Positions 5,608 through 30,857 of a stretch of 42,129 nucleotides of DNA are shown piece after piece (the first letter of the stretch is position 1; each line of letters begins with the position of its first letter). Under the pieces are notes generated by a model. It searched no databases and had not been told where the DNA came from. It was given only the letters and a program-made list of their open reading frames with translations. Source of the DNA: Candidatus Eiseniibacteriota bacterium (lineage in GTDB: Bacteria; Eisenbacteria; RBG-16-71-46); contig JANLWX010000205.1 in assembly GCA_031364845.1 (NCBI GenBank), positions 1 to 42,129 on the forward strand, in the 5' to 3' direction. The position numbers were made by a program, and so were the translations under genes.

Positions 5608-5650
5608 CGAGCGCCCCGCGCGTCCACTGCCGGCATCCTATTGCGCGTCG

Positions 5651-7781: not shown

Positions 7782-7787
7782 CGGCGG

Positions 7788-9608: not shown

Positions 9609-11428
9609 GCGCGGGCCCGCGCCTTCGCGAAGACCTGGTGGATGTTCCACAGCACCCGATGCGGAATCACGCTCGGCCTCAAGTTGCCGAACTTGTCGCG
9701 GATCGGGATCTCGGCCTTCAACGTGGGCAGCCATACGATGAAGCCCTGCTGGTTCACGATGTTCTGCACCTCGAGCCACATCTTCTTGCGCGCCTCGATA
9801 TCGGTGGTCTCCGCCATCGCGTCCATGAGCCGGTCGATCTCGGCTTCCGCAGGGGTTTCAGGCTTCGGCTGGCGGATGTTCCAGTAGTGCGTGAGGCCGC
9901 TCGACTTCCACACATTCTGGCCGAGCGCGGGCTCGGGCGGAGTTCCGCTCTGGAGTCCGAGCAGGCCCGCTTCGTACTGGAAGTCCTGGCGGAAGTTCGT
10001 GATCAGCGTGTTGAAATCGACCGGGGTCGGGATGCAGCGGATGCCGACCTTCGCGAGATCGTCCTTGATCAGATTCATCATCGCGCTGCGCACGGCGTTG
10101 TCGCCGTTGCTCTTCAGCGTGAAACTGATCGGGTGTCCACCCTGGTCCTCGAGAATTCCGTCGCCGTCGGTGTCCTTCCAGCCGAGCCCGGCGAGCAGCT
10201 GCTTGGCTCTTTCGGGATCGTGGTCGTCGTGAACGACGTCCGGCGAGTACCACATCGTGTTGCCGGCGGTGGACTGCGACCAGTTCTTCACACCGTCGCC
10301 GAAGAACGGACCGCGGATGATCGCCTCGCGGTCGATCGCCATCGACACCGCCCGGCGGAACTCGGGCTTCGAGAACCACGCGTAGCGCACCGGATCGATC
10401 TGCGGATCGCCGATCTTCTTGCCGGGCTTTGCCTCCCGAACTTTGTTCAGATTGAACCACACGAAATTGGTCGAGAGCGCGGGCCCGAGCGGATACACCG
10501 TGTACGCCCCGCGTTTCTGGCCCTCGCGGTTAGTCTTGTAATCCTCGGGCTTCACGTTGTCGAGCGCATCCAGATCGCCCGACTGGAATTTGAGGGCGGC
10601 AGTGTTCTGATCGGGAACGATCAGGTACACCAGCTCGTCGAGGTACGGCAGCCGCTGCCCCTTGGCGTCGACTCCCAGCCAGTACGGATTGCGCTCGAGC
10701 ACCGTCTTCTCACCCGGCGCGTACTGCTTGAGCTTCCACGCGCCGCTCGTGACCAGGCTCTCGGGCGGTGTGTTGACACCGAACACCGAGGCGAAATCCC
10801 CGCGACGATAGGCGGCGTCCAACCGGTGCTTGGGCACGATGTAGAGCGAAGCGAGCACCGACGGCAGCACCGCGTAAGGTGAGGGCAGCTTCATCACCAC
10901 CGTGAACGAGTCCGGCGCCGAGAGCTGGATCTTCTGCCCGCGCACCTCGACCAGATCCTGAACCGCCGGGTGAAGCGTTTCGTCGTAGGCGATCTCGAAG
11001 CTGAACAGCACGTCGTCGGCCGAGATCGGATGGCCGTCGGAGAACGCCGCCCCGCGCCTCAGATGGAACGTCCAGGTCAAGGCATCCGGGCTCATCTCCC
11101 ACGACTTGGCGAGCTCGGGGTAGAGCTCTTCACGCGCGTTGTCGTAGTTGACGAGGTAGGCGAACATCCGCGTGTTGATGTCCGACGAGGAGGTCTCGTT
11201 CGCCATCAGCGGATTGAACGTCTTGGGCGGATTGGTCTGGCCGATCACGAACCGGCCGCCGTAGGTTCCAATCTCGGGGGCCCAGAACGTGAGCGTGTCG
11301 ATCGGGAGCGGATGCGGATCCTGGTACGTGCTGCGGGCGTGCGTGGTCTTGGAACCGCAGCCGGCGAGGAGCGCCGCCGCACCCAGTGCCAGCGCGCTGG
11401 CCGCAGCGAGTTTCCCAAATCGCATCAT
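9605..11428 (-). CDS. ABC transporter substrate-binding lipoprotein, family 5 (paralogue 1)
   Basis: Start re-called at MMRFGK after a G-rich RBS; lipobox LAGC; same family-5 motifs as 7788-9608. Confidence 0.93.
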   Translation of the reverse strand: MMRFGKLAAASALALGAAALLAGCGSKTTHARSTYQDPHPLPIDTLTFWAPEIGTYGGRFVIGQTNPPKTFNPLMANETSSSDINTRMFAYLVNYDNAREELYPELAKSWEMSPDALTWTFHLRRGAAFSDGHPISADDVLFSFEIAYDETLHPAVQDLVEVRGQKIQLSAPDSFTVVMKLPSPYAVLPSVLASLYIVPKHRLDAAYRRGDFASVFGVNTPPESLVTSGAWKLKQYAPGEKTVLERNPYWLGVDAKGQRLPYLDELVYLIVPDQNTAALKFQSGDLDALDNVKPEDYKTNREGQKRGAYTVYPLGPALSTNFVWFNLNKVREAKPGKKIGDPQIDPVRYAWFSKPEFRRAVSMAIDREAIIRGPFFGDGVKNWSQSTAGNTMWYSPDVVHDDHDPERAKQLLAGLGWKDTDGDGILEDQGGHPISFTLKSNGDNAVRSAMMNLIKDDLAKVGIRCIPTPVDFNTLITNFRQDFQYEAGLLGLQSGTPPEPALGQNVWKSSGLTHYWNIRQPKPETPAEAEIDRLMDAMAETTDIEARKKMWLEVQNIVNQQGFIVWLPTLKAEIPIRDKFGNLRPSVIPHRVLWNIHQVFAKARARA

Positions 11429-11460
11429 GAATCCCCCCTGACCCGTTGCGTGAAATGGAG

Positions 11461-12303
11461 TTATCGAAGCGCGGCAGTATAGGAACCGGATTCGGGCGGG
11501 GTCAACAGAAACGCTCCCGCCGCGCCATCGAGCCGACGGGCGCCCGGCAGTTCCGACGCGAGGACGTCCGCCCAGCGTTCGAGCGGCGCCTCGGGTTCGA
11601 GGTACTGGCCAGCTTCGATCGCGCGCGACTCGAGCGTTGCGCGAGCGGCCTCCTGATGGTCGCGATCGATCGCCAGATAGTCCGTGACCCGCAGGTGGCC
11701 CTTCCCGAGCAGCACGCTGCCCTGTTGCAGCAGCGCGCGGGCGGTACGCCGCTGGGCGCTGCCCACCAGCTTGCGGCCCTCGAGCACGACTTCGTGACGC
11801 GCGGTCGACGCAAAGCACGGTGCGGCGGGCGCAGGCTTCGCGGATGATGTCGTCGCGGCAATCCCGTGGTGCCGATCCGCCGTAAGTGCATCGTCTGCCA
11901 TCGCCACGGGGCGAGCGGTGGCGGCAGCGTGCTGCGCCGGAATGCCGAGCCGGATCAACGACCGGACAAGGAGTCTGGAGATCGCGTCATAGGATTGCGT
12001 GAGCGAGCCGCCCCATTGCGCATCCTCGAGCCGCGCGGCGAGTGAATAAGTCCACTCCTCGGCGTGGAAGATCGCGCGCCCGCCGGTGGGCCGCACCGCC
12101 CACGGCACGCCCGCGGCGCGGCAGCCATCGAGGTCGAGTTCCCACTCCGGCCGTTGCGCGTAGCCGAGCGTGATGCCATACGGACGGAAGCGGAACAGCC
12201 GCAGAACGGGTTCGGCATCGACCGCTTCGGCGCGCGAAAGCAACAGCGCATCGCGATGCATGTTCTCCGCCGGATCGTGGTCGCCGTCACACCACAGGAT
12301 CAT
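11461..12303 (-). CDS. Lipoate-protein ligase / octanoyltransferase family protein (LplA/LipM-like)
   Basis: AENMHRDALLL, PVLRLF, VRPTGGRAIFH, PCF, GRKLVGSAQRR, LLQQGS; catalytic-domain length only. Confidence 0.88.
   Translation of the reverse strand: MILWCDGDHDPAENMHRDALLLSRAEAVDAEPVLRLFRFRPYGITLGYAQRPEWELDLDGCRAAGVPWAVRPTGGRAIFHAEEWTYSLAARLEDAQWGGSLTQSYDAISRLLVRSLIRLGIPAQHAAATARPVAMADDALTADRHHGIAATTSSAKPAPAAPCFASTARHEVVLEGRKLVGSAQRRTARALLQQGSVLLGKGHLRVTDYLAIDRDHQEAARATLESRAIEAGQYLEPEAPLERWADVLASELPGARRLDGAAGAFLLTPPESGSYTAALR
11476..11505 (-). promoter_or_regulatory. sigma70-type promoter for the peptide ABC operon, inside the 3' end of the lipoyl ligase gene
   Basis: Minus strand TTGACC-N18-TATACT. 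Confidence 0.72.
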
Positions 12304-12331: not shown

Positions 12332-13021
12332 TCAGCGCAGACCGAGCCAGTTCTCGAGCAGGAACTGGAAGCGTCCGATGAGCAGAGAGATGCGCGACAT
12401 CACGGTGTAGCCGTAGCCCGCGCCGAAGCCGACCATCAGGAAGTAGATACCGAGCTTGGACGCCACGCCGAGCGCACCCTTGTGCTCGCGGCTGAAGAAG
12501 AAGAACAGCAGCGACGTGATGAGCCCGACCGTGAACACAATCGCGCTGATCGTGCCGCCGATCGTGGGCATCAGGATCGGCTGGAGGCTCGCCTGTACCT
12601 GGGCCACGAAATCGCCCTGCGCGAAGCCGGTGGTCTTGATGCCGGCGTAGACGCCGATGATCACGGCGAGCGGCCAGCGCGACAGCCACCCGATCTTTCC
12701 CATCAGGCGCGTGAACAGCAGCAGTCCGAGAATTCCGGTGAAGATCAGGAATCCACGATAGTCACCGACTTCGGCGGCGAACATTCCCGTGTGAGCGGCG
12801 TTGACGCCGGTGCCGCGGAACGCCTTGCCCAGCGGCAAAATCAGGTTCGGATAGATGACCGTCCAGAAGTTGAGGATGATGTAGTAGCCACCCGACACGC
12901 CCACGAACAGATGCTCGGCGAACTTGTAGAGCGGGTTGTCCTTGTAGAGGAAGCTGAAAACGAACAACGTCAGCGCGGCCGCGACCCATACCGCGAAGTC
13001 GGTCGAAATGTGCAGGCTCAT
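12332..13021 (-). CDS. Hypothetical integral membrane protein (about 6-7 TM), GlmL-like module
   Basis: Start re-called at MSLHIST (ATGA overlap); SFLYKDNPLYKFAEHLFVGVSGGY, FLMVGFGAGYGYTVMSRISLLIGR; mostly hydrophobic. Confidence 0.85.
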   Translation of the reverse strand: MSLHISTDFAVWVAAALTLFVFSFLYKDNPLYKFAEHLFVGVSGGYYIILNFWTVIYPNLILPLGKAFRGTGVNAAHTGMFAAEVGDYRGFLIFTGILGLLLFTRLMGKIGWLSRWPLAVIIGVYAGIKTTGFAQGDFVAQVQASLQPILMPTIGGTISAIVFTVGLITSLLFFFFSREHKGALGVASKLGIYFLMVGFGAGYGYTVMSRISLLIGRFQFLLENWLGLR

Positions 13022-13836
13022 GCCGTCTCCCGCCGCTTCGACCGGCGCACCAGGTTGCCGAGGACGATGCAAAGTGCGACGAACACGTGTCCGAGCGACT
13101 GCGCGTCCATGCCCTTGGTCGCCGAGCCGCTCTCACCGCGCGACTTCTCGTATTCGGCCGCCCCCGCCATCCCTCCGAGCAGACCCTGCAGCTGGCCCGA
13201 CTGCAGATACGGATAGAACTCGGGCGCGCTCACCGCGGTCACACCCGCGACCATCGGCAGGTGGAACCGCGCCTGCACCTGTTGCACCCATTCCTTGGTG
13301 CCGGGATAGCCGGCGGAGATGTTCACCAGCAGCGGGAACGTCGAATAGTCGCGCACGTTGCGCATGATCGGGAACCTGCGCGTGTCGCCTCCGGTGTAGT
13401 CGCGTGGGAATGCGTTCGCGATGCCCTGCCCCATCACGACCATCACCGCTTCGTTGCCGGCCTTGTAGCCGAGATTGATCCAGTCGGTCCCGTACACCTT
13501 GCCCGGAAATTCCTTCGCGGTCTCGCGCGTGATGCTGTCGACCAGTCCGGGACCCGCGTTCCACAGCACCGTGATCACGATCTTGCAGTCCTTCGACAGC
13601 AGATGGCGCATGGCGGTGCGCGTCATCGGCACCATTTCGGGGATGGCACTGGGATCGTAATCGCACGACATCAGCACGGTGGATCCGTTCGGCACCTTGT
13701 CGATGCCATCACGGAAGCCCAGCACTTCCTTGGAGACCGTGAGCGGAAGCGAGAGCGGGAACAGCAGCGGAAAGAACACCAGAAGTCCCATGACGAGGAA
13801 GATCCAGCGGCGGTCGAGGTTTTCGAGCCACTTCAT
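13018..13836 (-). CDS. Hypothetical membrane-anchored protein (N- and C-terminal TM, central alpha/beta domain), GlmL-like module
   Basis: Start re-called at MKWLENLDRRWIF after GGGGAGG; DYDPS..PEM, DWINLGYKAG, PYLQSGQLQGLLGGMAGAAEYE. Confidence 0.85.
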   Translation of the reverse strand: MKWLENLDRRWIFLVMGLLVFFPLLFPLSLPLTVSKEVLGFRDGIDKVPNGSTVLMSCDYDPSAIPEMVPMTRTAMRHLLSKDCKIVITVLWNAGPGLVDSITRETAKEFPGKVYGTDWINLGYKAGNEAVMVVMGQGIANAFPRDYTGGDTRRFPIMRNVRDYSTFPLLVNISAGYPGTKEWVQQVQARFHLPMVAGVTAVSAPEFYPYLQSGQLQGLLGGMAGAAEYEKSRGESGSATKGMDAQSLGHVFVALCIVLGNLVRRSKRRETA

Positions 13837-13840
13837 GAGA

Positions 13841-14503
13841 TCAATCCTCCCCACTCAGGTACGATCGCTCGATCCCGAGGATCACGCGCAGGCCGGTCGC
13901 CATGACGCCGAGTGCCGCGCCGATCAGAATCGCCCGTTTCGCTGCATTCTGCGGGAAGTTCATGATCCAGTCCTGCATTACGCTCAAGTGCAGCGCGTCG
14001 GGCAGGAAACCCGTGAACTTGTCTCCGACCGGCACGCGTCCGAGCATCACGATCAGTGCGGCGACCGCGAGCAGGCCGGCCTCGACCGTGCGGATCCGGA
14101 ACGCGCGGAATGCCGCCGAGGCGATGAAGAACGCGAGCAGCGAGAACAGCGTCGCCGACATCGGCGAATAGATCGTGTCGTAGATCCACTTGGAGCGCGT
14201 GCCCTGGTTGAGGAAGCCACCGTCGTGCGCGATGCCGTCGAGCGCCCCGACGCCGACCGTGATCAGCAGCGAGACCACGAGCAGAATCTTGTACTGCCAG
14301 TCAGGCGAGCGCTTGGAGATCGCGTCGAGATTGATGCGCAGCACGTTCGCGCCGCCGAGCACATAGCCGAATGCGACCACTACGATCGCGGTCGCCTGCA
14401 GGAAGTCGGCGGGGACGCTCACCCACTGATGGGGCACGAAGAACGACAGGATCATGAACAGGCCGATCACGGCCGTCATCAGCAGCGGGAGCTCGCGTTT
14501 CAT
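13841..14503 (-). CDS. Hypothetical integral membrane protein (about 6 TM), GlmL-like module
   Basis: SPMSATLFSLLAFFIASAAFRAFRIRTVEA, LGRVPVG, AAKRAILIGAALG, LRVILGIERSY. Confidence 0.85.
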   Translation of the reverse strand: MKRELPLLMTAVIGLFMILSFFVPHQWVSVPADFLQATAIVVVAFGYVLGGANVLRINLDAISKRSPDWQYKILLVVSLLITVGVGALDGIAHDGGFLNQGTRSKWIYDTIYSPMSATLFSLLAFFIASAAFRAFRIRTVEAGLLAVAALIVMLGRVPVGDKFTGFLPDALHLSVMQDWIMNFPQNAAKRAILIGAALGVMATGLRVILGIERSYLSGED

Positions 14504-14515
14504 CCGGTCACGCTC

Positions 14516-15739
14516 CTACTGGGTTTCCATCCACTTCGTGAACCCGTGGATGCCCATGGTTTCGAGCACGCATCCGACGAGGACCGAGAGGATGATGAGG
14601 ATCTTCATGTAGTCGGCGCCCTTGAGGCTGCCGACGCGCTTCGGATCGCCGGACAGATAGGCGCTCGCGGCGAACAATTCCTCACCGATCAGCGTGTAGT
14701 CGCACGCCACGACGAAGAACGGCAACTGGTGCACGTTGGCGGTGCCGGCGACCTGGATCGCGCCGGTCGAGAAACCGGTCTCGGCGAGCAGCAGCGACTC
14801 GGCGTAGAAGGCGCCCATGAAGATGTGTGCGGCCGGCTTGTCGCGCAGCATGATGCCGGTCACGGCCGCGACGTAGGCGAACTGCTCGGGCGTGATGAAA
14901 CGCACGCTGTTGGGATCGTACTGATCCGGTTTGCCGGCGTGCAGATACCCCGCCTTCACCATTTCTTCTGCGATCGTGAACGGAATCGGGTAGGTGACGG
15001 GCACCGTGATCGGCGTCTCGTACTTCGCCGTGAGTTTGGCGACGTTCTCGAGGATCACGAGGCCGGCGACGGTCTGGATCTCGTCGATGTCGAGGATGCC
15101 CGGAATGTAGAGCACCGAGCGGCCCATCTCGGTGGCGCGGCCGATCGCTTCTTCGATCGCGTCGATGCCGGGAATGCGGCGCACGAACGGCTTCTTGCCG
15201 CTCTGGGCACTGGCCATGAAGTACAGCACGAAGCCGAAGAACAGGATCGTGCCCACGAGCACGCTGTAGCGGCCGTTGTTGAACCACTGGGACGTGGCGC
15301 GCAGCGGACCGGTGACGCTGCCGGCCGGTACGACCTGCGTGAGGTTGTAGGTGCTGATGCGATAGAAGTAGTCGGTGTTGCGCCGGACCGACTGATCCGT
15401 GTACGCCGTCACGCCGGCCGCGAGCGAGTCCACACGCTGCCACGGTCCGGTGGGATCCTCGGCGCGATCGACGTAGTAGCCGACCACCTTGCCGACGCTG
15501 TCGTCCGGCGAGGCCTTCCACGTGAGCGCGAGCGAACGTCCGGCATCGTTGTCGACGTCGGTCCCGAGGAGCCCCGAGGCCGGCGCGAGCGATGCCGCGG
15601 CCACGACGGCCGTGTCGGCCGGTGCCTGGGCCAGGGCCAGGGCAGGGTTCGCAAACAGCGCGATGACGATCGAGACGACGCCGAGTCCGAGGGCGATCAG
15701 ACCCGTTCCGCAGTGCGGTGCGCGTCGCATCATGGCCAT
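14516..15739 (-). CDS. Membrane protein with signal peptide, fibronectin type III-like domain, TM helix and C-terminal domain (DUF6754-like, from recall)
   Basis: Start re-called after GGGGAGG (15739 or 15733). FN3-like pattern LTWKASPD...GYYVDR...YTD...YFYRI; TM VLVGTILFFGFVLYF; then VRRIPGIDAIEEAIGRATEMGR...FYAESLLLAETG...QVAGT...QLPFFVVACDYTLIGEELFAASAYL. Confidence 0.85.
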   Translation of the reverse strand: MAMMRRAPHCGTGLIALGLGVVSIVIALFANPALALAQAPADTAVVAAASLAPASGLLGTDVDNDAGRSLALTWKASPDDSVGKVVGYYVDRAEDPTGPWQRVDSLAAGVTAYTDQSVRRNTDYFYRISTYNLTQVVPAGSVTGPLRATSQWFNNGRYSVLVGTILFFGFVLYFMASAQSGKKPFVRRIPGIDAIEEAIGRATEMGRSVLYIPGILDIDEIQTVAGLVILENVAKLTAKYETPITVPVTYPIPFTIAEEMVKAGYLHAGKPDQYDPNSVRFITPEQFAYVAAVTGIMLRDKPAAHIFMGAFYAESLLLAETGFSTGAIQVAGTANVHQLPFFVVACDYTLIGEELFAASAYLSGDPKRVGSLKGADYMKILIILSVLVGCVLETMGIHGFTKWMETQ

Positions 15740-15816
15740 CGAACCTCCCCTGACGGGTGATGGGCTCCATAAAAAACAGGAAATCGTGCCGCGGCTCCGG
15801 CACGATCGCGTGCGCG

Positions 15817-15846
15817 AAGCTAGCAGCGCCGCCGAATTTCTGTCAA
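15817..15846 (-). promoter_or_regulatory. sigma70-type internal promoter upstream of the four membrane-protein genes
   Basis: Minus strand TTGACA-N18-TAGCTT with extended -10 TG. Confidence 0.72.
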
Positions 15847-15877
15847 CGAACATGCGACCGGCGCGGCATCCGGCGGG

Positions 15878-17002
15878 TCATGGCGCGATCAGTTCCACGT
15901 TTGCGCGCGGCACCATCGCGCGCGATCGATCGTCTGCGAACTCGACCACCAGCACGCGGACCTTGGTCTCCGACTCGAGCACCTGGAGTTCGGCGGGCAA
16001 CTCGACGACATTGCCGATGCGCCCGAAATACGGCTCGCGGATGACACGCAGCAGCGAACCGATCTCGAGGCCCATCGAGGCATCGCCATCCGCGGCATCG
16101 GTGGCCGCGGCGGCGCGCGGGATCAGGATCTCGGGCCGCATCACGCCGGCGCGGATCTGGGTTGCGCCGCTCACGCACGCGAGTTGACCGGCGTTCCCCG
16201 ACAACAACGCCCACGTGCGCTCCGCCATGCGGATGTGACCGAATCCTTCGGTGAGGACCAGCGTGAAGCCGAGATCCTCGGAGCCGGTGATGGCCACGCC
16301 GAGGTCCTTGCCCAGCAACTGGCGCAGGTCGTGATCATCGAAGCCGCCGACCACGACCGCGACCGCGCCCACTTCACGCGCGCGCATCAGGGCCGCATGC
16401 GAGACGTGCGACCCTCCCACCACGACCTTGCCCCGGTGCTCCGGCTTGAAGTGCCCGGGCGTCAGCGCCTCATCGGGCGAGGACGCGGCGATCGCGATTT
16501 CGCCGAACGTCTCGCCGCCGACTCCGAAGATGCCCTGTAGGAATGCGGCGTGCGCTTCGACGATCACGCCCTCACCCGGGATCACTTCGGCCACCACGCC
16601 ATGGACGTAGGCATTGACCTCGACCGGGATTGGCGGCTCGCGCAGGATCAATTGACCCGTCACTGTGGAAACGCTCTCGAGCGTTCCATCCACAGGCGCG
16701 GTCGCGGAGTTCTTGACCATCCCGAACAGGCTCTTCGCGGTCGCGATGATCTCGTCCTTCTTGACCTTGGAACCGATCGGCCGCACCAGCGCTTCGGCGA
16801 CCTTGGCCGGATCGACCGACAACTTGGACGCGAGGTTCACGGTCTGAACGTTGCCGGGAAGTTCGGTGCGCGCGACCACGGTGTCGGCCGCGACGCGGTC
16901 GCCCTGAGCGACCAGCACGTCGCCCTTGAGCGGCAGCCGCCGCTCGCGGCGCAGCACGGTGTGTTCGGTGACGCGCAGACCGGGAGTGTAGGCGTGTGCC
17001 AC
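15878..17002 (-). CDS. Hypothetical protein with repeated barrel-sandwich-hybrid motifs, a central alpha/beta domain and a C-terminal KOW-like domain
   Basis: VLVAQGDRVAADTVVA, IGSKVKKDEIIA...APVDGTLESV, AYVHGVVAEV; LTEGFG; IGSLLRVIREPYFGRIGNV; GTG start with GGAGG. Confidence 0.85.
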   Translation of the reverse strand: MAHAYTPGLRVTEHTVLRRERRLPLKGDVLVAQGDRVAADTVVARTELPGNVQTVNLASKLSVDPAKVAEALVRPIGSKVKKDEIIATAKSLFGMVKNSATAPVDGTLESVSTVTGQLILREPPIPVEVNAYVHGVVAEVIPGEGVIVEAHAAFLQGIFGVGGETFGEIAIAASSPDEALTPGHFKPEHRGKVVVGGSHVSHAALMRAREVGAVAVVVGGFDDHDLRQLLGKDLGVAITGSEDLGFTLVLTEGFGHIRMAERTWALLSGNAGQLACVSGATQIRAGVMRPEILIPRAAAATDAADGDASMGLEIGSLLRVIREPYFGRIGNVVELPAELQVLESETKVRVLVVEFADDRSRAMVPRANVELIAP

Positions 17003-17003
17003 G

Positions 17004-18815
17004 TCAGACCTCCCGCGGATACATGTCGAGCGCGCGATTCCAGGCGCGCAGTCTCTGGATCCGCGCCGCGGCGTCGGCCGGCATCGTGAACGGCTGCCGC
17101 CCGCGCGTGTCGATGATCAGCCCCACCACGCCCCCCTTGATCGTTTCCTCGATCGCCTTCCCCTTGCCCGCGCCGAGGTCGAAGCCGCGCTCCGGTGTCG
17201 CGAGCAGTCGCGCCGTTCCCTCGGCCGGAAGCGGCAGCAGCACCAGCTCCCCGAAGGGGATGCTGCGCTCGATGCGTTCCATGCCGGGAGCGCTGACGTC
17301 GATCTTGACGCACGACTGGCCTGGTTTGCCGCCGCCGACCGGCGCGAGCACCGCGCCGAGGCGGATCAGGCAGTCGGCCTCGAACACCTGGGTCGCGGCC
17401 TCCTCATGGACGGTGGACAACACGCCGAGCTGCGGAGCCATGAAGATGCTGTCGACCGCGAGGTGCGTGATGCCTTCGGGCAGGAAGGCATCGATCATCA
17501 TGAGCGCCGACTGCACCCGGCGCGGCGCGTGCGACAGCACGCCGCCCGAGCCGACCAGCAGCCCGAGATCGAGCAGGTTCACGAGCGACGAGCCGCTCTC
17601 ACTCTGCGACATGATGTCCGAGATGGTGCGCTGCGTCTGGATACCCTTGAGTCCGACCGCGAGGGCTTTGTGCTGCTCGAAGGCGAGCCGCAGCGCCTCG
17701 CGCGAGAGCGCCTGTTCAATGACCAGGTCCTCGAGCGTCTGCGGAATGGTGGTCGGACGGATCATCTTGTTCTTGACCCGGTTGCGGAGATCGACCTCGT
17801 CGACATCGAACGGCACCCAGCGCAGGATGTTGTCGATGCCGGCTTCCGACATGACGTTCGAGACCGAGTAACTCATGCCGAGATTCGCGGACACCGTGCG
17901 ATTGAACACATCCTGGAACACCGAGAACACGTCGGTCGTCGCACCGCCGATGTCGACCCCGACCACCGCGATCTGATCGCGCTTGGCGACCTTCTCGATG
18001 ATGAGCCCGACCGCACCCGGGGTCGGCATGATCGGAACCGGTGACCATGTCATGAGCTTCTTGTATCCCGGCGCGTGCGCCATCACGTGCTCCATGAACA
18101 GATCATGGATCGCATCGCGCGCAGGCTTGAGATTTTCGCGTTCGAGCGTGGGCCTGAGGTTCGGAACCACGCTCAGGGCGGTCCGCGATTCGAGATTCTC
18201 TCGCACCACCGGCACCGCATCGCGGTTGCCCGCGTAGATCACCGGCAGCTCGTAGCCGGCCCCCAACCGCGCGCGCGGATCCGCGGCGACGATGATCTCG
18301 GCCATCTCGGCGACGCGCTTCACGTCGCCTCCGTCGGTGCCACCCGACATCAGGATCATGTCGGGGCGCAGCTGGCGCAGCCGGCGGATCTTCTCGTGCG
18401 GGCGCCGCCCGTCGTTGAGCGCGATCACGTCCATCACGATCGCACCCGCGCCGAGTGCTGCGCGTTGCGCGCTCTCGCCGGTCATCTGGAGCACGAGGCC
18501 GGACACCATCATCTGCAGTCCGCCGCCCGCGCTCGAAGTCGAGACGTAGAGATCGACGCCTTCGGTCCCGTTCTGCGGCGAGATGATGCGGTCGCCGTCC
18601 AGCATGCGACGGCCCGCGAGTTCCTCGACTTCACGCACCGCGTTCAGCACACCGCGCGTCACGTCCTCGAACGGCGCCTCGACCGTCGTCGGGGCTTCGC
18701 CGCGCACGATCAGACGGTACTGGTCACCGCGCTTCTCGATCAGAATCGCCTTGGTCGTCGTTGAGCCACAGTCGGTGGCGAGGATCGATCGGATGTTCTC
18801 GGGAAGGATGTCCAT
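17004..18815 (-). CDS. GlmL-like (glutamate mutase L / methylaspartate mutase accessory) ASKHA-fold ATPase
   Basis: ATDCGSTTTK, APTTVE, TSSAGGGL, AALGAGA, PDMILMSGGTDGG, IYAGN, IMPTPGAV, VDIGGATTDVFS, RTVSANLGM, GSGGVL. Confidence 0.88.
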   Translation of the reverse strand: MDILPENIRSILATDCGSTTTKAILIEKRGDQYRLIVRGEAPTTVEAPFEDVTRGVLNAVREVEELAGRRMLDGDRIISPQNGTEGVDLYVSTSSAGGGLQMMVSGLVLQMTGESAQRAALGAGAIVMDVIALNDGRRPHEKIRRLRQLRPDMILMSGGTDGGDVKRVAEMAEIIVAADPRARLGAGYELPVIYAGNRDAVPVVRENLESRTALSVVPNLRPTLERENLKPARDAIHDLFMEHVMAHAPGYKKLMTWSPVPIMPTPGAVGLIIEKVAKRDQIAVVGVDIGGATTDVFSVFQDVFNRTVSANLGMSYSVSNVMSEAGIDNILRWVPFDVDEVDLRNRVKNKMIRPTTIPQTLEDLVIEQALSREALRLAFEQHKALAVGLKGIQTQRTISDIMSQSESGSSLVNLLDLGLLVGSGGVLSHAPRRVQSALMMIDAFLPEGITHLAVDSIFMAPQLGVLSTVHEEAATQVFEADCLIRLGAVLAPVGGGKPGQSCVKIDVSAPGMERIERSIPFGELVLLPLPAEGTARLLATPERGFDLGAGKGKAIEETIKGGVVGLIIDTRGRQPFTMPADAAARIQRLRAWNRALDMYPREV

Positions 18816-18821
18816 GACCTC

Positions 18822-19157
18822 TCAGGTTCGTGGTGTGCGGGCGGCGCGGCGCTCGGCGGCGGCGGCGTGTCGCGCGTTCTGTGCGGTGTCGGCGTGTTCC
18901 TCGATCGATCGCATGAGGACTTCGAGCGTCTCGCGCCGCTCGATGAGCTGGGCGAAGCGGCGGTAGTCGGGAAGCCTGAGGAACGCGCCGACGATCGGCT
19001 CGAAGAACACCATCGCCTGTCCCGCGAGCAGTGACAGCGGGCGCGCGCCCTCTATCGTGAGCAGTGCCGGAACCTCGAGACGCAACTCGACGATGCGCGC
19101 GGCGATGCGCCCGAGCAGCGCGCGATCCTCGGCGGTGATCACGAGATCAGAGCTCAT
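18822..19157 (-). CDS. Small hypothetical protein
   Basis: Start re-called at MSSDLV; LEVPALLTIEGARPLSLLAGQAMVFFEP...LIERRE; co-oriented and tightly packed in the operon. Confidence 0.75.
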   Translation of the reverse strand: MSSDLVITAEDRALLGRIAARIVELRLEVPALLTIEGARPLSLLAGQAMVFFEPIVGAFLRLPDYRRFAQLIERRETLEVLMRSIEEHADTAQNARHAAAAERRAARTPRT

Positions 19158-19638
19158 GGCGTTCCCAATGCGATCGCGCCGCGGCGAGTACTTCGTCACG
19201 CCGGGCGGCAGGCAATGGAAGCACCAGCGCGCGGAACGCATCGAGCCGGCGCGGGTGCGTGAACGGCGACATCACGATCGCGTCGCGACCGGGACGGGCA
19301 CGGCGCAGATCAGCCCAAACGCGACGCTCCCAGCCGAACGCGCTGCGCAACGCGACGCCGGCGTCGTCGATCCGGCACTGAGAGGGAATCAGCAACGGAG
19401 CCAGCGTCCCCGCCGCGGCAAGCGCCAGCAGTACTCCGAGCACGGCACTCGAGAGCAACACCGTCACCAGCGCGTACACGCCGATCGTGAACACGAGCGC
19501 GATCGCGGCGCGTCCGGGCCGCTCGCGCCATGGATTCCACCTCCACTCGATCGCGGCCAAAGCGGCATCGAGCCGGGGCGCGGGCACCGAAACCACGGGC
19601 ATCGCGCCCTGCCCGTGGAGGGCCGCCGTCGGATTCAT
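19147..19638 (-). CDS. Hypothetical membrane protein (2 TM plus a possible PH-like C-terminal domain)
   Basis: Start re-called at ATG 19638 overlapping the gcvPB stop (ATGA); WRWNPWRERP, two hydrophobic helices, PSQCRIDDAGV, LDAFRALVL. Confidence 0.7.
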   Translation of the reverse strand: MNPTAALHGQGAMPVVSVPAPRLDAALAAIEWRWNPWRERPGRAAIALVFTIGVYALVTVLLSSAVLGVLLALAAAGTLAPLLIPSQCRIDDAGVALRSAFGWERRVWADLRRARPGRDAIVMSPFTHPRRLDAFRALVLPLPAARRDEVLAAARSHWERHEL

Positions 19639-21161
19639 CGTCGCGCGACCGTCTCCGCGGCCGGAACCGGCGGGGTGCCGGGTGAAGTGCGCCACTTGAG
19701 GATCAGTTCGCGCGCGGCACGTCCTTCGTCGAGGCGGCTGACGGGAGTGTCGTGCGGCGCGTTCTGAAGGATGTCCGGGTGCTCGCTCGCCTCGCGCGCG
19801 ATGCGTTCCATCGCGAGCGCGAAGTGCTCGAGCCGGTCGAGCGTCTCGGTTTCGGTCGGCTCGATCATGAGGGCTTCCTCGATGATCAGCGGGAAGTACA
19901 CGGTCGGCGCATGAACCCCGAAATCGAGCAGCCGCTTCGCGACGTCGAGCGTCTTCACGCCGTGCTTGCGGAGCGGTTTGCCGGACAGCACGAACTCGTG
20001 CATGCAGTGCTCGTCGTGCGGGAGCTCATACGTCTTCGCGAGACGGCGCATCAGCCAGTTCGCGTTCAGGATCGCGGTGCGGCTCACGCGCCGCACGCCT
20101 TCGGGCCCGAGCGTGAGAATGTAGGTGAGCGCCCGCGCGAGAATCCCGAAGTTTCCGTGGAACGCATGCACGCGGCCGATCGACTGCGGCCGGTCGTGCA
20201 CCAGCGCGTATGCGCCGTCACGCTCGACCACGATCGGAACCGGCAAGAACGGTTCGAGATGCTTCGCCACCGCGACCGGCCCGGCGCCCGGACCACCGCC
20301 GCCATGCGGCGTGGAGAACGTCTTGTGCACGTTGATGTGCATCACGTCGAAGCCGAGGTCGGCCGGGCGCACGAGGCCGACGAGCGCGTTGAGGTTCGCG
20401 CCGTCCATGTAGACCTGCGCTCCCACCGCGTGGGCGCGGCGCGTGACTTCGAGAATGTTGCGCTCGAACTGGCCGATCGTGTTTGGCACCGTGAGCATCA
20501 CCGCGGCCGTCGTCGCATCGAGCGCTTGCGTGAGCGCTTCGAGATCGACGCCGGCGCGTTCGTCCGAGGCGATCGTCACCGTTTCCCAGCCGAGCAGATT
20601 CACGCTCGCGGGATTGGTGCCGTGCGCGGAATCGGGCACCAGCACCTTGCGGCGCGTGTCCCCTTCTCCGCGCGAACGATGGTAGGCGCGGATCAGCATC
20701 AGCCCGGTCATCTCGCCCTGGGCGCCCGCCGACGGTTGCGTCGTGACCGCGGCGAAACCGGTGATGGCGGCGAGCACCTTCTGCAGTTCGAAGATCACGC
20801 GCAGCGCGCCCTGATTCGCGGCATCGGGTCCGAGCGGATGCGCGAGCGCGAATCCGGGCAGTCCCGCGATCTCGTCGTTGATCTTCGGGTTGTACTTCAT
20901 GGTGCACGAGCCGAGCGGATAGAACCCGCGGTCGATGTGATGGTTGAGCGTCGACAGCTCGATGAAATGCCGCACGACCTCGGGCTCCGAGACCTCGGGG
21001 AAGGCGAGCGACTCGCGCAGCGCCACGCCCGCCAGCAGCTCCGCGATCGGCGTGACGGGAACATCACAGCGCGGCAGTTCGGGCCCGCGATGACCCGGCC
21101 CGCCCTGCTCGATCAGCAGCCGGCGCGGGAACGTCAGATCTTCCGATGAGCGCGTGCTCAT
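19635..21161 (-). CDS. gcvPB: Glycine dehydrogenase (decarboxylating) subunit 2
   Basis: FYPLGSCTMKYNP, QPSAGAQGE, PDSAHGTNPAS, MDGANLNA, NVHKTFSTPHGGGGPG (PLP Lys), LMIEPTETE; start re-called at MSTRSS. Confidence 0.96.
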   Translation of the reverse strand: MSTRSSEDLTFPRRLLIEQGGPGHRGPELPRCDVPVTPIAELLAGVALRESLAFPEVSEPEVVRHFIELSTLNHHIDRGFYPLGSCTMKYNPKINDEIAGLPGFALAHPLGPDAANQGALRVIFELQKVLAAITGFAAVTTQPSAGAQGEMTGLMLIRAYHRSRGEGDTRRKVLVPDSAHGTNPASVNLLGWETVTIASDERAGVDLEALTQALDATTAAVMLTVPNTIGQFERNILEVTRRAHAVGAQVYMDGANLNALVGLVRPADLGFDVMHINVHKTFSTPHGGGGPGAGPVAVAKHLEPFLPVPIVVERDGAYALVHDRPQSIGRVHAFHGNFGILARALTYILTLGPEGVRRVSRTAILNANWLMRRLAKTYELPHDEHCMHEFVLSGKPLRKHGVKTLDVAKRLLDFGVHAPTVYFPLIIEEALMIEPTETETLDRLEHFALAMERIAREASEHPDILQNAPHDTPVSRLDEGRAARELILKWRTSPGTPPVPAAETVARR

Positions 21162-22498
21162 GATGCCCTCCCCGCTTCCGCCAGCACCGCGGCCCACCGT
21201 TCGATCTCCTGAACGCTGCGCTGCTCCGTGACGGCGACCAGCAGCAGCCGCTTCCACTCGGGACGGAACTGGCCGAGATCCACACCCGCGAGGATTCCGG
21301 CCTTCATGCCGCGCGCGACTACGGCCGCCGCATCGACCGGGCACTCGAGCGCGAACTCGCGGAAGAACGCACCTTCGTGCGCGCGCCGGTAACCGGGGAT
21401 GGCGGCCGCGAGACCTGCCGCGTGGTGGGACTTCTGAACGCACAGTTCGGCGACGTCGCGCATGCCGTGCTTGCCGAGCAGGCTCATGTGAATCGTCGCC
21501 CGCAGCGCCATCAGACCCTGGTTGGTGCAGATGTTGGAGGTCGCCTTCTCGCGGCGGATGTGCTGCTCGCGCGTCTGGAGCGTGAGCACGAATCCGCGCC
21601 GCCCGTCGCGATCGACGGTCTCGGCCGCGATGCGGCCCGGCATGCGGCGCACCAGGCTCTGCTTGCACGCGAAGTATCCGAGCATCGGTCCGCCGAACGA
21701 CGGAGAATTACCGAGCGCTTGAGCCTCGCCCACCACGATGTCGGCGCCCGCCTTGCCCGGCGGTTCGATCAGCGACAGCGCGATCGGATCGCACACCGCG
21801 ATCGCGAGCGCTCCGACTTCGTGCGTCATCGCGTGGATGCCACGCGGATTCTCGAGCAGCCCGAAGAAGTTCGGCTGCTGGTAGACGACACATGCGACGT
21901 CGGGGCCGAGTGCCGGCCTCAGATCTTCGGCTGCGCACGCGCCGCCGCGGTCTTCCACTACCGTCAAGTCGTGGCCGTCGAGGTAGGTGCGCAACACGGC
22001 GAGATAGTTCGGGTGCAGAGCGCCCGCGACCACGACGCGCCGCCGGCCGGTCTGACTGCGCGCCAGCAGCACCGCTTCGACCGTGGCGGTCGAGCCGTCG
22101 TAGAGCGAGGCGTTCGCGACGTCGCAGCCGGTCAGATCCGCGATCATGCTCTGGAACTGGAAGATCACGGTGAGCGAGCCCTGCGCCACCTCGGGCTGAT
22201 AAGGCGTGTAGGCGGTCGCGAATTCGGAACGCATCGAGAGCGCATTCACCGCGGAGGGGATCCAGTGATCGTAGACACCGGCACCGAGAAACGAGACCGC
22301 GCGGTCCGCCGCGTTCGAGCGCGACCACTCTCCGAACGTCCGCCGGATCTCGATCTCGCTGAGCGGCCCGGGAATCGGCAACGGTTCGCGCAGCATCACC
22401 TGTTTCGGCAGCGCATCGAGCAGGTCGTCGAACGCGTCGACGCCGATCTCGCGCAGCATCCGCTGTTCTTCCGCCACGGTCAGCCCGGTGAAGCTCAC
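21158..22498 (-). CDS. gcvPA: Glycine dehydrogenase (decarboxylating) subunit 1
   Basis: SFLGAGVYDH, EFATAYTPYQPEVAQG, NASLYDG, LQTREQHIRREKATSNICTNQ; GTG start overlapping the gcvH stop. Confidence 0.96.
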   Translation of the reverse strand: MSFTGLTVAEEQRMLREIGVDAFDDLLDALPKQVMLREPLPIPGPLSEIEIRRTFGEWSRSNAADRAVSFLGAGVYDHWIPSAVNALSMRSEFATAYTPYQPEVAQGSLTVIFQFQSMIADLTGCDVANASLYDGSTATVEAVLLARSQTGRRRVVVAGALHPNYLAVLRTYLDGHDLTVVEDRGGACAAEDLRPALGPDVACVVYQQPNFFGLLENPRGIHAMTHEVGALAIAVCDPIALSLIEPPGKAGADIVVGEAQALGNSPSFGGPMLGYFACKQSLVRRMPGRIAAETVDRDGRRGFVLTLQTREQHIRREKATSNICTNQGLMALRATIHMSLLGKHGMRDVAELCVQKSHHAAGLAAAIPGYRRAHEGAFFREFALECPVDAAAVVARGMKAGILAGVDLGQFRPEWKRLLLVAVTEQRSVQEIERWAAVLAEAGRAS

Positions 22499-22884
22499 GC
22501 GTGCTGCTCCTCGATCAGCCGGGTGTACGCGGCACTGTCCATGAGCGCGTCCAGATCGGCGGGGTTCGCGGGTTTGATGCGGATCATCCAGCCGGTGCCG
22601 TAAGGCTCGGCATTCACGGCGGCAGGATTGTCGGCCAGCGCGTCGTTGACCTCGACCACCTCGCCGGCCAATGGCGCGTAGAGATCGCTCACGGTCTTCA
22701 CCGCTTCGACGACGCCGAACGGCTTGCCGGCCTCGATCTTCTTGCCGACCGCGGGCAGCTCGACGAACACGACATCGCCGAGCTGATCGGTCGCGTAACC
22801 CGTGATGCCGACCGTGACGACTCCGTTCGCGAGCTTCGCCCATTCGTGTTCGGCGGTGTACTTCACATCATCGGGATACGGCAA
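22495..22884 (-). CDS. gcvH: Glycine cleavage system H protein
   Basis: YTAEHEW, VGITGYA..QLGDVVFVELP, VEAVKTVSD (lipoyl Lys), VNAEPYGTGW; TTG start with AGGAGG. Confidence 0.97.
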   Translation of the reverse strand: MPYPDDVKYTAEHEWAKLANGVVTVGITGYATDQLGDVVFVELPAVGKKIEAGKPFGVVEAVKTVSDLYAPLAGEVVEVNDALADNPAAVNAEPYGTGWMIRIKPANPADLDALMDSAAYTRLIEEQHA

Positions 22885-22953
22885 GACATCCTCCTGAGCA
22901 GTTCTAAGCGTGAAATCGATCCAACAGCGGCACTGCGCCCCAAGAGCGCGTGA

Positions 22954-24060
22954 TCACTTGCGCGAGCCGTGTTTCCAGAACGGAGCAGTCACCACGCGAG
23001 CGAGGAGGCGGCTCGCACCGGCCACGACTTCGAGCGTCGTTTCCGGTGCCGTGAATTCCTTCTCGACGTAGGCCATCGCGATCGGGCGTTCGAGACTCGG
23101 ACTGAACGTGCCGCTGGTCACTGTGCCCACCATGCGATCGCCCGACTCCACCATCATGCCGTGACGCGCCACGCGGCGACCGTCGAGTTCGAGGGCCACC
23201 AGCTTTCGCGTGAGGCCCTGCTCCTTCTGGCGCACGAGCACACTCTTGCCGATGAAGTCCGCCTTCTTGAGCTTGACTGTCCATCCAATGCCGGCTTCCA
23301 GCGGCGAGGTGCTGTCGTCGATGTCGTTGCCATAGAGCATGTAGCCCATCTCGAGCCGCAAGGTGTCGCGCGCGCCGAGACCGACCGGCTCCATCGCCGC
23401 CGCGCGGCCGGATTGCTCGAGACCGTTCCACACGGTCGCCGCGTGCTTCGGATGGAAGTAGAGCTCGAAGCCGTCCTCACCGGTGTAACCGGTGCGCGCG
23501 ATCACCGCGGGAACGCCGAACAGCGGGCCTTCGATGAAACGGTAGTAACCGAGCTCGAGTGCGGCGTCCGGCACATGGCCCCGCAGCACGTCCGGAGCCT
23601 TCGGTCCCTGGACCGCGAGCAACGCGGTCTCGGCCGAACGGTCCTCGAGCGTGACACCGGCCGGGCAGTGCTCTTTCATCCACGCCAGGTCCTTCGCGAT
23701 GTTCGAGGCGTTCACGACCACCATGAAGTGATTCTCGGACCGGTAGATCAGCAGGTCGTCGACGATCCCGCCGCCGGGGCGGCACATCGGCGAGTACATC
23801 GCCTGTCCCGCCGCCACCGCGGCGAGGTCGTTCGTCACGATATGGTTCAGAAATTCAAGCGCGCCCGGCCCCGAGACGAAGAACTCGCCCATGTGGGAGA
23901 TGTCGAACAGGCCCGCCTTCTGGCGCACGCACAGATGCTCACGGACATCGCCCGAGTAACGCACCGGCATCTCGAAGCCGGCGAAGTCGATGAGCTTGCC
24001 GCCGGCCGCCTGATGGAAGGCGTGAAACGGTGTTCGCTGGGGAACAGTGTGGGTGTCCAC
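22954..24060 (-). CDS. gcvT: Glycine cleavage system aminomethyltransferase T
   Basis: FAGFEMPVRY, GLFDISHMGE, GGIVDD, AVQGP, RTGYTGEDGFE, GLGARDTLRLE; start re-called at GTG 24060 after GGAG. Confidence 0.96.
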   Translation of the reverse strand: MDTHTVPQRTPFHAFHQAAGGKLIDFAGFEMPVRYSGDVREHLCVRQKAGLFDISHMGEFFVSGPGALEFLNHIVTNDLAAVAAGQAMYSPMCRPGGGIVDDLLIYRSENHFMVVVNASNIAKDLAWMKEHCPAGVTLEDRSAETALLAVQGPKAPDVLRGHVPDAALELGYYRFIEGPLFGVPAVIARTGYTGEDGFELYFHPKHAATVWNGLEQSGRAAAMEPVGLGARDTLRLEMGYMLYGNDIDDSTSPLEAGIGWTVKLKKADFIGKSVLVRQKEQGLTRKLVALELDGRRVARHGMMVESGDRMVGTVTSGTFSPSLERPIAMAYVEKEFTAPETTLEVVAGASRLLARVVTAPFWKHGSRK

Positions 24061-24089
24061 GGGTGACTCCTGGGTGGGCAAACGCGATC

Positions 24090-24119
24090 AGGATATCGAG
24101 CGGAAGCGGCCGCGGTCAA
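24090..24119 (-). promoter_or_regulatory. sigma70-type promoter of gcvT
   Basis: Minus strand TTGACC-N18-TATCCT between the kbl stop and the gcvT RBS. Confidence 0.7.
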
Positions 24120-24122
24120 CCC

Positions 24123-25331
24123 TCAGCGCGCAACGCCCTTGAGAACACCGAGCGCGTGACCCGCACGCGTGAACGCCGCCACCGCGCGCTCGATCATCGC
24201 CGGCGTGTGCGCCGCCGACAGTTGCACGCGGATGCGGGCCTGCCCCTTCGCGACCACGGGATACGAGAAGCCGATCACGTAGATCCCGTCGTCCAGCAGC
24301 AGGCGCGCCATCTCGTGGGCGAGCTTCTCGTCGTACAGCATGATCGGAACGATCGGATGCGAGCCCGGCTTCAACTCGAAGCCTGCCGCCCCCATCGATT
24401 CGCGGAACGCGCGGGTGTTGCGCTCGAGGCGATCACGCAGTTCGGTTCCGCGCGACAGCATGTCGAACACCGCAATCGACGCCCCGACCACCGCGGGCGG
24501 CAGCGTGTTCGAGAACAGGTACGGGCGCGAGCGCTGGCGCAGGAGCTCCACGATCTCGCGCCGGCCGGTCGTGAATCCGCCGATCGCCCCGCCCAGCGCC
24601 TTGCCGAGCGTGCCCGTCACGATGTCGATCCGCCCCACGGTGCCGGTGTGCTCGGCGGTGCCGCGACCGGTCGCGCCGAGGAAGCCGAGCGTGTGGCACT
24701 CGTCGACCATCACCATCGCTTCGAAGCGGTCGGCGAGATCGCAGATGCCCTGGAGATTCGCGATCGTCCCATCCATGCTGAATGCACCGTCGGTGGCGAT
24801 CAGGATGCGGCGGCAGTTCTGCGCGCGAGCCTCGGTCACGCACCGCTCGAGCGAGGCCATGTCGTCGTGGTCATATCGCCAGCGCTTCGCCTTGCACAGC
24901 CGGATGCCGTCGATGATCGACGCGTGGTTCAGGGCGTCGGAGATCACCGCATCCTCCTCGCCCAGCAGCGGCTCGAACACGCCGCCGTTCGCGTCGAAGC
25001 ACGCGGCGTAGAGGATGGTGTCCTCGGTGCCGCAGAACTCCGCGATCCTTTGTTCGAGCGTGCGATGGAGGTCCTGGGTTCCGCAGATGAAGCGCACCGA
25101 CGACAGGCCGTATCCGTGGGAATCGATCGCGCGATGCGCGGCGGCGATCACATCGGGATGGCTCGAGAGGCCGAGGTAATTGTTCGCGCAGAAGTTGAGC
25201 ACGCGACGCCCGTCGGCGAGCGTGATCTCGACATCCTGGGGCGAGGTGATGATGCGCTCATCCTTGTACGTGCCGGCGTCGCGGATCGCCTGGAGTTCGG
25301 CTTTCAATTCGTTCTTCACCCGCTCGAACAT
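24123..25331 (-). CDS. kbl: Glycine C-acetyltransferase (2-amino-3-ketobutyrate CoA ligase)
   Basis: [67 protein letters not shown]. Confidence 0.96.
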
Positions 25332-25332
25332 G

Positions 25333-26442
25333 TCAGACCTCCTCGCCCCACGGAACCAGCACCACCTTGCCCGCGGTGCCGGTGCGCAGCAGCGCGATCG
25401 CGTCCTCGAAGCGCTCCATCGGCATCACGTGCGTGATCGCGGGACTCAGATCGAGCCGGCCCGATCCCAGCAGATTGTCCAGCTGATACCAGGTGTCGAA
25501 CATGCGCCGGCCGATGATGCCGTGCACGGTCACGCCCTTGAAGATCACGAGCCGGTTCCAGTCGAGCTCGAACGGTTGCTTCGGGAGGCCGAGCAACGAC
25601 AACCGGCCCCCGTTGCGCAGGGCCGCGAGACCATCCCGCATCGCCTGCGGATTACCGGACATCTCGAGCACGCCATCGAGACCCTGCCCGCCGGTCAGCT
25701 CGTGAACCCGCTCGACCAGCGACTCCTTCGAAACATCGATGGTGGCGTCGGCGCGCATCCGGCGCGCGAGGTCCAGCCGATAGGGCGAAACGTCGCTCGC
25801 GAACACGCGCGCGGCACCCGCGGCACGCGCGACGCCGATCGCGAACAGTCCGATCGGCCCGCAGCCGGTGACACCGATGTTGCACCCCGACAAGGGGCCG
25901 GCGAATGCGGTGTGGACGGCATTGCCGCACGGCTCCATCACCGCAGCGACTTCGAGCGTGACATTCGCGGGAACGCGCCATGCGTTGACGGCGGGGACCA
26001 CGACGTACTCCGCGAATCCGCCCGGCACATCGACGCCCAGGATTCGCGTGTTCTCGCACACGTGCCCGTTGCCGGTGCGGCACGCGAGGCAGTGGTTGCA
26101 CACGATGTGACTCTCGCACGACACGCGCTCGCCCGGAACGAAGCCCGAGACCCCGGAGCCGATCTCGACGATCTTGCCGACGAATTCATGGCCGAGTGTC
26201 ACGGGCGGGCGGATGCGGCTCTCGGACCAGCGGTCCCATTCGTAGATGTGAAGGTCGGTGCCGCACACGCCGGCGCGCAGGACCTTGAGCAGAAGCTCGC
26301 CCGCGCCGGCCGCCGGCACCGGGACTTCACGGATCTCGGCACCGGGGCCGGCGCCGGCCTTGACGATCGCATGCATGGTGCGCGCGGGTGTTCGTGTCTC
26401 TCGCGGGGATACCGTGCTGGTGGCGGGGGTTCCGGGGTTCAT
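25333..26442 (-). CDS. tdh: L-threonine 3-dehydrogenase
   Basis: [29 protein letters not shown]...[24 protein letters not shown]; adjacent to kbl; alternative start 26376. Confidence 0.94.
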
Positions 26443-26603: not shown

Positions 26604-29504
<2,901 letters not shown>

Positions 29505-29513
29505 GGGGGGCGA

Positions 29514-29522
29514 ACTATAGCA
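29514..29522 (-). promoter_or_regulatory. Extended -10 promoter directly upstream of uvrA
   Basis: Minus strand TGcTATAGT followed by 9 nt and the uvrA ATG; no SD sequence. Confidence 0.55.
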
Positions 29523-29546
29523 GCAACATCAACCGGTGCACACATG

Positions 29547-29565: not shown

Positions 29566-29584
29566 TACGGGACGATCCCCCGAG

Positions 29585-30853: not shown

Positions 30854-30857
30854 GGCA

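Follow-up and report, generated by a model that had tools for sequence, protein, structure and literature searches.

The 42,129-nucleotide stretch analysed here, referred to throughout as the window, is contig JANLWX010000205.1 (positions 1 to 42,129, forward strand) of assembly GCA_031364845.1, from a Candidatus Eiseniibacteriota bacterium. It contains six co-oriented minus-strand open reading frames (ORFs) at positions 12332–18815, all of them real genes, which we label A to F (Table 1). An earlier note on this DNA, made from the sequence without database searches, had proposed that they specify an ATP-driven membrane complex, and its account of the genes largely holds: they are contiguous and co-oriented, the ATPase A carries both the DCGSTTTK and the DIGGATTD motif, the soluble 374-residue partner B begins one base past the stop codon of A, and no B12-binding or mutase family is found among the 39 window ORFs scanned. 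The conserved unit, however, has eight genes rather than six, with two small genes (u182 and u139) preceding A, and co-oriented as its members are, it is not one simple operon, because a conserved promoter motif lies between B and C.

The likely starts of C, E and F are taken from ribosome-binding sites and stop/start overlaps, and residues of C are counted from its longer frame, which starts at 15853. Hydropathy predicts no transmembrane (TM) segments in A or B, a signal sequence and two TM segments in C, about six in each of D and F, and two in E flanking an alpha/beta domain. C is a full member of DUF6754 (PF20539, 378 bits), and for B, D, E and F neither Pfam nor NCBIfam gives a match. The earlier description of C as an FN3-bearing membrane protein is sound as to the membrane; the FN3 label was given by eye, and Pfam makes no call at E≤0.01.

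The genes in the window run tdh, kbl, gcvT, gcvH, gcvPA, gcvPB, u182 and u139 upstream of A, and a lipoate-ligase-type gene and an opp-type ABC operon lie downstream of F. The likely start of u182 overlaps the stop codon of gcvPB; u182 has no Pfam match, and its homologues sit 5′ of A in related loci. The u139 gene adjoins A in the window and directly precedes C at other loci, and its product is a possible adaptor.

Table 1. Features of the module and its immediate surroundings, in order of transcription.
Feature	Description	Coordinates	Strand	Remarks
tdh-kbl-gcvT-gcvH-gcvPA-gcvPB	Host operon	19635..26442	-	Module inserted into operon in the Eisenbacteria phylum
u182	Small conserved membrane protein, 2 TM, eighth module gene	19147..19638	-	Likely start ATG 19638
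u139	Small soluble conserved protein	18822..19157	-	Likely start ATG 19157
A	603-aa ASKHA (actin/Hsp70/sugar-kinase fold) ATPase	17004..18815	-	PF13941, 412.5 bits
B	374-aa partner	15878..17002	-	1 base 3′ of A stop
Putative cassette promoter	Sigma-70-type motif, TTGACA-N18-TAGCTT	15817..15846	-	Conserved after B stop
C	Signal peptide, FN3-like outer domain, TM, cytoplasmic DUF6754, TM	14516..15739	-	ORF 14516-15853, likely start 15739
GRATEMG motif	C residues 238-244	15122..15142	-	Near-invariant
D	220 aa, about 6 TM	13841..14503	-	No family
E	TM, outer six-stranded alpha/beta domain, TM	13018..13836	-	ORF 13018-13854, likely start 13836
F	About 6 TM	12332..13021	-	ORF 12332-13072, likely start 13021
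Lipoate-ligase gene	Lipoate-ligase/octanoyltransferase-type catalytic domain, outside module	11461..12303	-	Ancestral gcvPB neighbour

Conservation of the module and its relation to glycine cleavage

The block recurs well beyond the window. Among 80 genome loci collected with E as the query, all six genes are present in 59, and in 45 of the 46 with sufficient length for the whole set. Most of the nearest relatives are recorded under the name Candidatus Eisenbacteria. In a set of 151 genomes of the phylum, which are kin and thus not independent, and in which some absences may be assembly gaps, DUF6754 and PF13941 are each matched in 137 genomes, with 136 having both, 13 neither, and only two discordant; a single DUF6754-positive genome lacks A. 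The system is also present in all 61 genomes of a second-phylum set centred on a Zixibacteria record, where there are two to six DUF6754 matches per genome (not strictly copy numbers) and a single match for A in 58 of the 61. A is about 70% identical across a phylum, and relatives of B fall into 2509 clusters at 50% identity. At several second-phylum loci (L101, L106, L112, L118, L119 and L121) A and the first cassette are on opposite strands, in a head-to-head arrangement.

The position next to glycine cleavage genes is a constant one within the phylum, with gcvT and gcvH 5′ of the block in all 16 phylum loci, but the link is positional and dispensable. Four genomes without the module were examined: all have an intact gcvT-H-P on long contigs and no module gene 3′ of it, and in two of them, G033 and G062, the ligase gene comes immediately after gcvPB, the whole module being cleanly missing. 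The module is thus an eight-gene insertion, including the two small upstream genes, that is dispensable for glycine cleavage. Elsewhere no gcv genes were found at L126, L148, L151 or L162, the upstream DNA of L068 and L090 being too short for a judgement. Cassettes that stand alone have unrelated genes around them. Of the 151 genomes, 143 contain lipA, whether or not the module is there. The functional tie to threonine and glycine catabolism suggested in the earlier note is therefore not supported, given the clean absence between gcvPB and the ligase gene and the unrelated surroundings of the stand-alone cassettes.

The ATPase and its partner

A contains phosphate-1 (DCGSTTTK), phosphate-2 (DIGGATTD) and adenosine (GSGG) motifs, and residues D15, G17-T21, D288-T294 and G424-G425 are at least 90% conserved in an alignment of 46 rows; with its motifs intact, A is expected to hydrolyse ATP. 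Its match to PF13941 (MutL) covers the whole model at positions 1-450, against a gathering cut-off of 27 bits. A nonetheless falls below the NCBIfam cut-offs for GlmL (NF040745, 212 vs 475), TIGR01319 (156 vs 204) and Or-4 (NF040744, 205 vs 600), and at 603 residues is longer than the GlmL/Or-4 proteins (461-467 residues), with which it shares 27-31% identity. A quick tree with long branches and a midpoint root places 24 A-type rows apart from five GlmL/Or-4 rows with a Shimodaira–Hasegawa-like approximate likelihood ratio (SH-aLRT) of 100, suggesting that A represents a long clade of PF13941 that is sister to GlmL/Or-4. These nearest named relatives are described as reactivation chaperones (PMC4682846).

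True GlmL/Or-4 genes have glmS and glmE on either side or come after an aminomutase gene. In the 151 phylum genomes there is no match over the cut-off to glutamate mutase GlmE (PF06368), with six weak matches below it, and none to the aminomutase large subunit (PF09043), while both searches detect records known to hold these families. Because no large subunit of either kind was found in these genomes, A is not a B12-mutase helper; mutase large subunits do not co-occur with it. The window genome has five B12-binding-domain matches, all on other contigs. An alpha/beta insert common to A and GlmL (window 18525-18155, A residues about 98-220) is cobalamin-binding-like, lacks DxHxxG, and has a weak similarity to GlmS (E 0.02); it could dock on partner proteins.

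The predicted structure of B has a mean predicted local distance difference test score (pLDDT) of 93 and comprises barrel-sandwich hybrid repeats, a swivel/PA-like alpha/beta domain, and a C-terminal KOW domain like that of NusG/Spt5. Foldseek finds no whole-chain match in the PDB, the best TM-score by query length being 0.24. Residues T281, R284 and P290 are invariant and lie in a GATQIRAGxxRPE loop. No phospho-accepting histidine is conserved in the swivel domain (neither H199 nor H202 is conserved, H202 being present in 10 of 116), no lipoyl or biotinyl lysine is conserved at the hybrid hairpin (K90 in 52 of 116, K97 in 34 of 116), and the hairpin tip is hydrophobic, L-F-G-L-F. Variants of 448-475 residues have an extra barrel-sandwich repeat (P0174, P0189, P0191, P0210, P0234 and P0263).

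A and B occur as natural fusions (P0146, P0218, L017, L019 and L020) and are likely to constitute one cytoplasmic energising unit. The fusion at L017:8601-11165, L018, L019:7966-10998 and L020:7429-10245 is a divergent second A-B type whose B part ends before the KOW domain, and which in L020 is near genes for an OPT oligopeptide transporter and a ThiD-type kinase.

The membrane cassette

The block consists of two modules, A-B and a four-gene cassette C-D-E-F whose order is constant in all of the cassettes and which is present as three tandem copies in 11 loci. Pairwise identities are correlated among the cassette subunits with r of 0.88-0.91 (121 dereplicated of 158 complete cassettes), and C-D-E-F is inherited as one block. 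A TTGAC-N-TAnnnT motif is present 3′ of the B stop codon in 59 of 85 loci. By comparison it is found in none of the 63-91 loci at five other junctions, in four of 83 after F, and in 113 of 8854 background windows, although the pattern was chosen after inspecting related loci. Because the motif recurs after the B stop, transcription of the cassette, and of the lipoate-ligase gene behind it, likely starts from a separate promoter. Just 3′ of this motif in the window, in the leader of C, are a 10-pair hairpin and T run (15807-15782, minus strand) which look like a terminator or attenuator and are not conserved in relatives. Unrelated genes are inserted at this B-C junction in L001, L002, L045 and L099.

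No other part of the cassette is as conserved as the inner domain of C (0.62 vs 0.45-0.48), which fits a shared interface. The FN3-like outer domain of C is optional in homologues. In 214 C sequences the GRATEMG residues G238, T241, E242, M243 and G244, along with Y278, are at least 90% conserved. E and F occur as natural fusions joined via one extra TM segment (P0273 and P0274), and in a model of the fusion (pLDDT 84) E is an alpha/beta domain of six strands between two helices, and F is six long helices; Foldseek gives no match to it at E≤0.001. In both E and C, conserved motifs sit at the beta-strand ends. Some E variants (P0271, P0272, P0275 and P0276) have a tandem duplication of the outer domain, a large CARDB insertion, or long acidic cytoplasmic tails that bear a zinc ribbon (P0275) or repeated LPxWL motifs.

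Topology was assigned by applying the positive-inside rule to 67-114 homologues, and from the additional helix of the E-F fusions and the CARDB insertion in one E. It places the E domain outside, the DUF6754 domain of C inside, and the N-termini of D and F inside and outside respectively, so that C/E and D/F make up oppositely oriented pairs. Comparison by hhalign gives E values of 0.02-0.03 and 0.01-0.03; the soluble domains of C and E score 44.6 vs 45.9 for the best unrelated controls, and the D/F similarity is within the range of shuffles. By orientation the members of each pair look like opposed counterparts, while these comparisons do not show them to be homologous.

C to F matched no characterised family, solved structure or published description in database and literature searches, of which the latter covered few subscription papers. 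A match of the membrane proteins to a characterised transporter family, which the earlier note had named as counting against its proposal, was thus not found in these searches.

A cassette that has lost its ATPase

The best evidence that A-B acts on the cassette comes from genome G084 (98% complete, 20 contigs), in which the order is gcvPB-u139-C-D-E-F-ligase, with A and B cleanly gone from the locus and not found elsewhere in the genome. We scored changes at conserved sites against 28 family members and against G047, which is of the same genus and keeps A-B. In the inner domain of C 29 of 128 conserved sites are changed in G084, as compared to seven in G047 and a mean of 1.3 (maximum 6) in the others, and the changes hit G238, T241, E242, M243 and G244 of GRATEMG as well as Y278. 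D is changed at 15 of 103 sites, about 11 of them on the inner side by the predicted topology. The E outer domain and F have changed at only two of 96 and seven of 104 sites, and the neighbouring genes at four of 169 (gcvT), none of 66 (gcvH) and one of 58 (ligase). The difference has a Fisher p of 3e-6, which treats sites as independent. Constraint thus appears to have been released only on the parts that face the cytoplasm, because A-B was lost, and this decay of inner-domain sites points to A-B acting on the inner domain of C, with GRATEMG as a predicted ATPase-docking patch.

The three most divergent C proteins come from one locus type (L126, L137 and L148), of which two also hold a divergent A, that of L148 having an altered phosphate-1 motif. 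This joint divergence is in line with coupling between C and A. The suggestion in the earlier note that the ATPase serves a membrane assembly is supported in part: the link between A and the cassette has evolutionary support and mutase large subunits do not co-occur with A, while transport, ATP hydrolysis and complex formation are predictions.

A possible importer and its alternatives

We favour, at slightly less than even confidence, the prediction that the block encodes a modular ATP-coupled importer of a small solute. A-B would dock on the cytoplasmic DUF6754 domain of C, binding its GRATEMG helix and the inner ends of D, with C as the coupling subunit between A-B and the cassette; the outer alpha/beta domain of E would capture the ligand, D and F, with six helices each in opposite orientation, would form the solute path, and each paralogous cassette may handle a different cargo. 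GlmL-type reactivases carry out the ATP-driven release of a tightly bound ligand or subunit, and by analogy each ATP cycle might force the cassette open or return it to its starting state, unlike the clamp action of an ABC-type ATPase. The function is a prediction, and the parts are unlike those of any described system. The 64 cassette-flanking proteins include opp components, an M20 peptidase, a gamma-glutamyl transpeptidase, an aminotransferase and members of many unrelated families, and this neighbourhood hints weakly at amino acids or short peptides as the most likely cargo.

Several observations weigh against an importer. No fold match links D, E or F to any transporter, and no consistent pathway emerges among the neighbours of the 64 cassette flanks. 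E diverges faster in general, and not peculiarly among co-resident paralogues, so this is not evidence for differing cargoes. The fused A-B paralogue of L017-L020 has no cassette nearby, in genomes that have many cassettes. The natural experiment in G084 is one genome in a genus of two, and it suggests that a cassette can be worth keeping without its ATPase, since E and F are under apparent purifying selection there; their retention would suit a regulator or remodeller no less than a motor.

It is accordingly conceivable, if unlikely, that the cassette is a channel, facilitator or ion-coupled carrier and that A-B is a reactivase-like regulator which gates, resets or remodels it. Oppositely oriented halves are a common layout in secondary carriers, and the orientations of C/E and D/F would suit such a carrier, as would the promoter motif belonging to the cassette, the conservation of E and F in G084, and the named relatives of A, which are described as reactivation chaperones (PMC4682846). 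Against it, only one of the 137 DUF6754-positive genomes is without A and both modules are jointly missing in 13, and the comparison scores demonstrate no homology of C with E or D with F. We judge it improbable that the locus encodes a trans-envelope enzyme or assembly machine, in which A or A-B would activate or phosphorylate a metabolite or lipid-linked substrate that the cassette transfers or processes across the membrane. ASKHA proteins do include kinases and hydantoinase-type activators (to which A has weak Pfam matches below cut-off), the swivel-type domain of B comes with the invariant T281/R284, and the conserved motifs of E and C sit at strand ends, as they do in active sites. But B has no conserved swivel histidine and no lipoyl or biotinyl lysine at its hairpin, neither C nor E matches an enzyme family, biosynthetic neighbours do not recur in the 64 flanks, and the module is dispensable.

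Improbable too, and if anything a trifle more so, is a signalling system with E as the sensor of an outer ligand and D-F as the relay, in which C would set the nucleotide state of A-B and the KOW domain would act on the transcription or translation machinery. Twelve or more conserved TM helices exceed the needs of a relay, no output regulator is conserved in the block, and although the cassette would then serve no purpose on its own, G084 has kept E and F conserved; what speaks for signalling is the receptor-like multiplicity of cassettes per single downstream unit, the NusG/Spt5-like end of B, and the long acidic cytoplasmic tails with a zinc ribbon (P0275) of some E homologues. That the genes serve glycine cleavage, lipoate supply or the reactivation of a B12 enzyme encoded elsewhere is very improbable. 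The gcvT and gcvH genes upstream in every one of the phylum loci, the ligase gene 3′ of F, and the five B12-binding-domain matches on other contigs would agree with it, but the clean loss that leaves gcvPB abutting the ligase gene largely refutes it. The lack of GlmE or an aminomutase large subunit in the 151 genomes, the presence of lipA irrespective of the module, and the four loci with no gcv gene also speak against it.

Other features of the window

Behind the ligase gene is an opp-type ABC operon (3506-11818, minus strand) with two tandem family-5 binding proteins and its own promoter-like motif, TTGACC-N18-TATACT, at 11505-11476; family-5 binding proteins are also encoded 3′ of the cassette in L001 and L045. 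Upstream of the host operon, 26604-42126 (minus strand) encodes UvrA, a MacAB-TolC-type exporter with two permeases, two TonB, two ExbD, ExbB, a STAS protein and a TPR protein, all of ordinary families. Two putative plus-strand ORFs at 132-1163 and 1234-2070 (343 and 278 residues) are without a Pfam match at E≤0.01.

Relation to described systems and implications

With GlmL/MutL and Or-4 the ATPase A shares, beyond the full-length PF13941 match and 27-31% identity, the phosphate-1, SSAxGGL, GGxDGG, AGN, PTP and DxGGATTD motifs; it differs in its length, its separate clade, its scores below the NF040745, NF040744 and TIGR01319 cut-offs, and in having B and a membrane cassette as neighbours rather than glmS/glmE or an aminomutase gene. 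Group II ECF vitamin transporters combine one shared energising module with several interchangeable membrane units, and occasionally have units without an ATPase. The genetic pattern here, and the pattern alone, works like theirs, with one A for several cassettes and an ATPase-less cassette in G084. However, the ATPase is of the ASKHA rather than the ABC fold, and what is exchanged is a set of four proteins whose soluble domains lie on both sides of the membrane; no ABC nucleotide-binding subunit, EcfT, S-component or ABC permease family is matched by A-F, and none recurs among 98 D and 98 E/F homologues.

Diol and glycerol dehydratase reactivases have an ASKHA ATPase with a swivel-type domain and a partner subunit, a likeness to A and B. 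Here no dehydratase gene lies nearby, a separate protein combines the swivel domain with barrel-sandwich and KOW domains, and there is no reactivase among the Foldseek matches listed for B. The barrel-sandwich hybrid repeats of B, in a soluble unit beside membrane subunits, also recall RnfC/NqrA, and RnfC_N is found in 19% of the members of an Atlas look-alike cluster; but B has no Fe-S or flavin motifs and no whole-chain PDB match, and D and F match no Rnf or Nqr family. DUF6754, of which C is a full member, is a family without a described function, and C is probably the inner, ATPase-coupling subunit of the four-gene cassette.

The system is real, widespread and uncharacterised, and its arrangement matches no described system. 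The database label 'glutamate mutase L' on the A-type proteins would be corrected by these findings. The analysis also offers experimental handles, in the docking patch of C (GRATEMG, Y278 and K411), the natural A-B and E-F fusions that would ease expression, and the natural ATPase-less cassette.

To our knowledge, the ATPases known to drive solute transport in bacteria are almost all of the ABC/ECF, P-type or rotary kinds. It is possible, though we hold this with some doubt, that the block represents a new class of primary active transporter, in which a shared actin/Hsp70-fold motor, sister to the B12 reactivases, docks on the DUF6754 GRATEMG helix of interchangeable cassettes with opposed halves (C-D facing inside and E-F outside), and which would be a main route of nutrient uptake in many uncultured anaerobic phyla. 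If true, the coupling of an actin-fold ATPase to exchangeable cassettes in the membrane would introduce a new principle of energising transport, or failing that a novel type of gated membrane machine.

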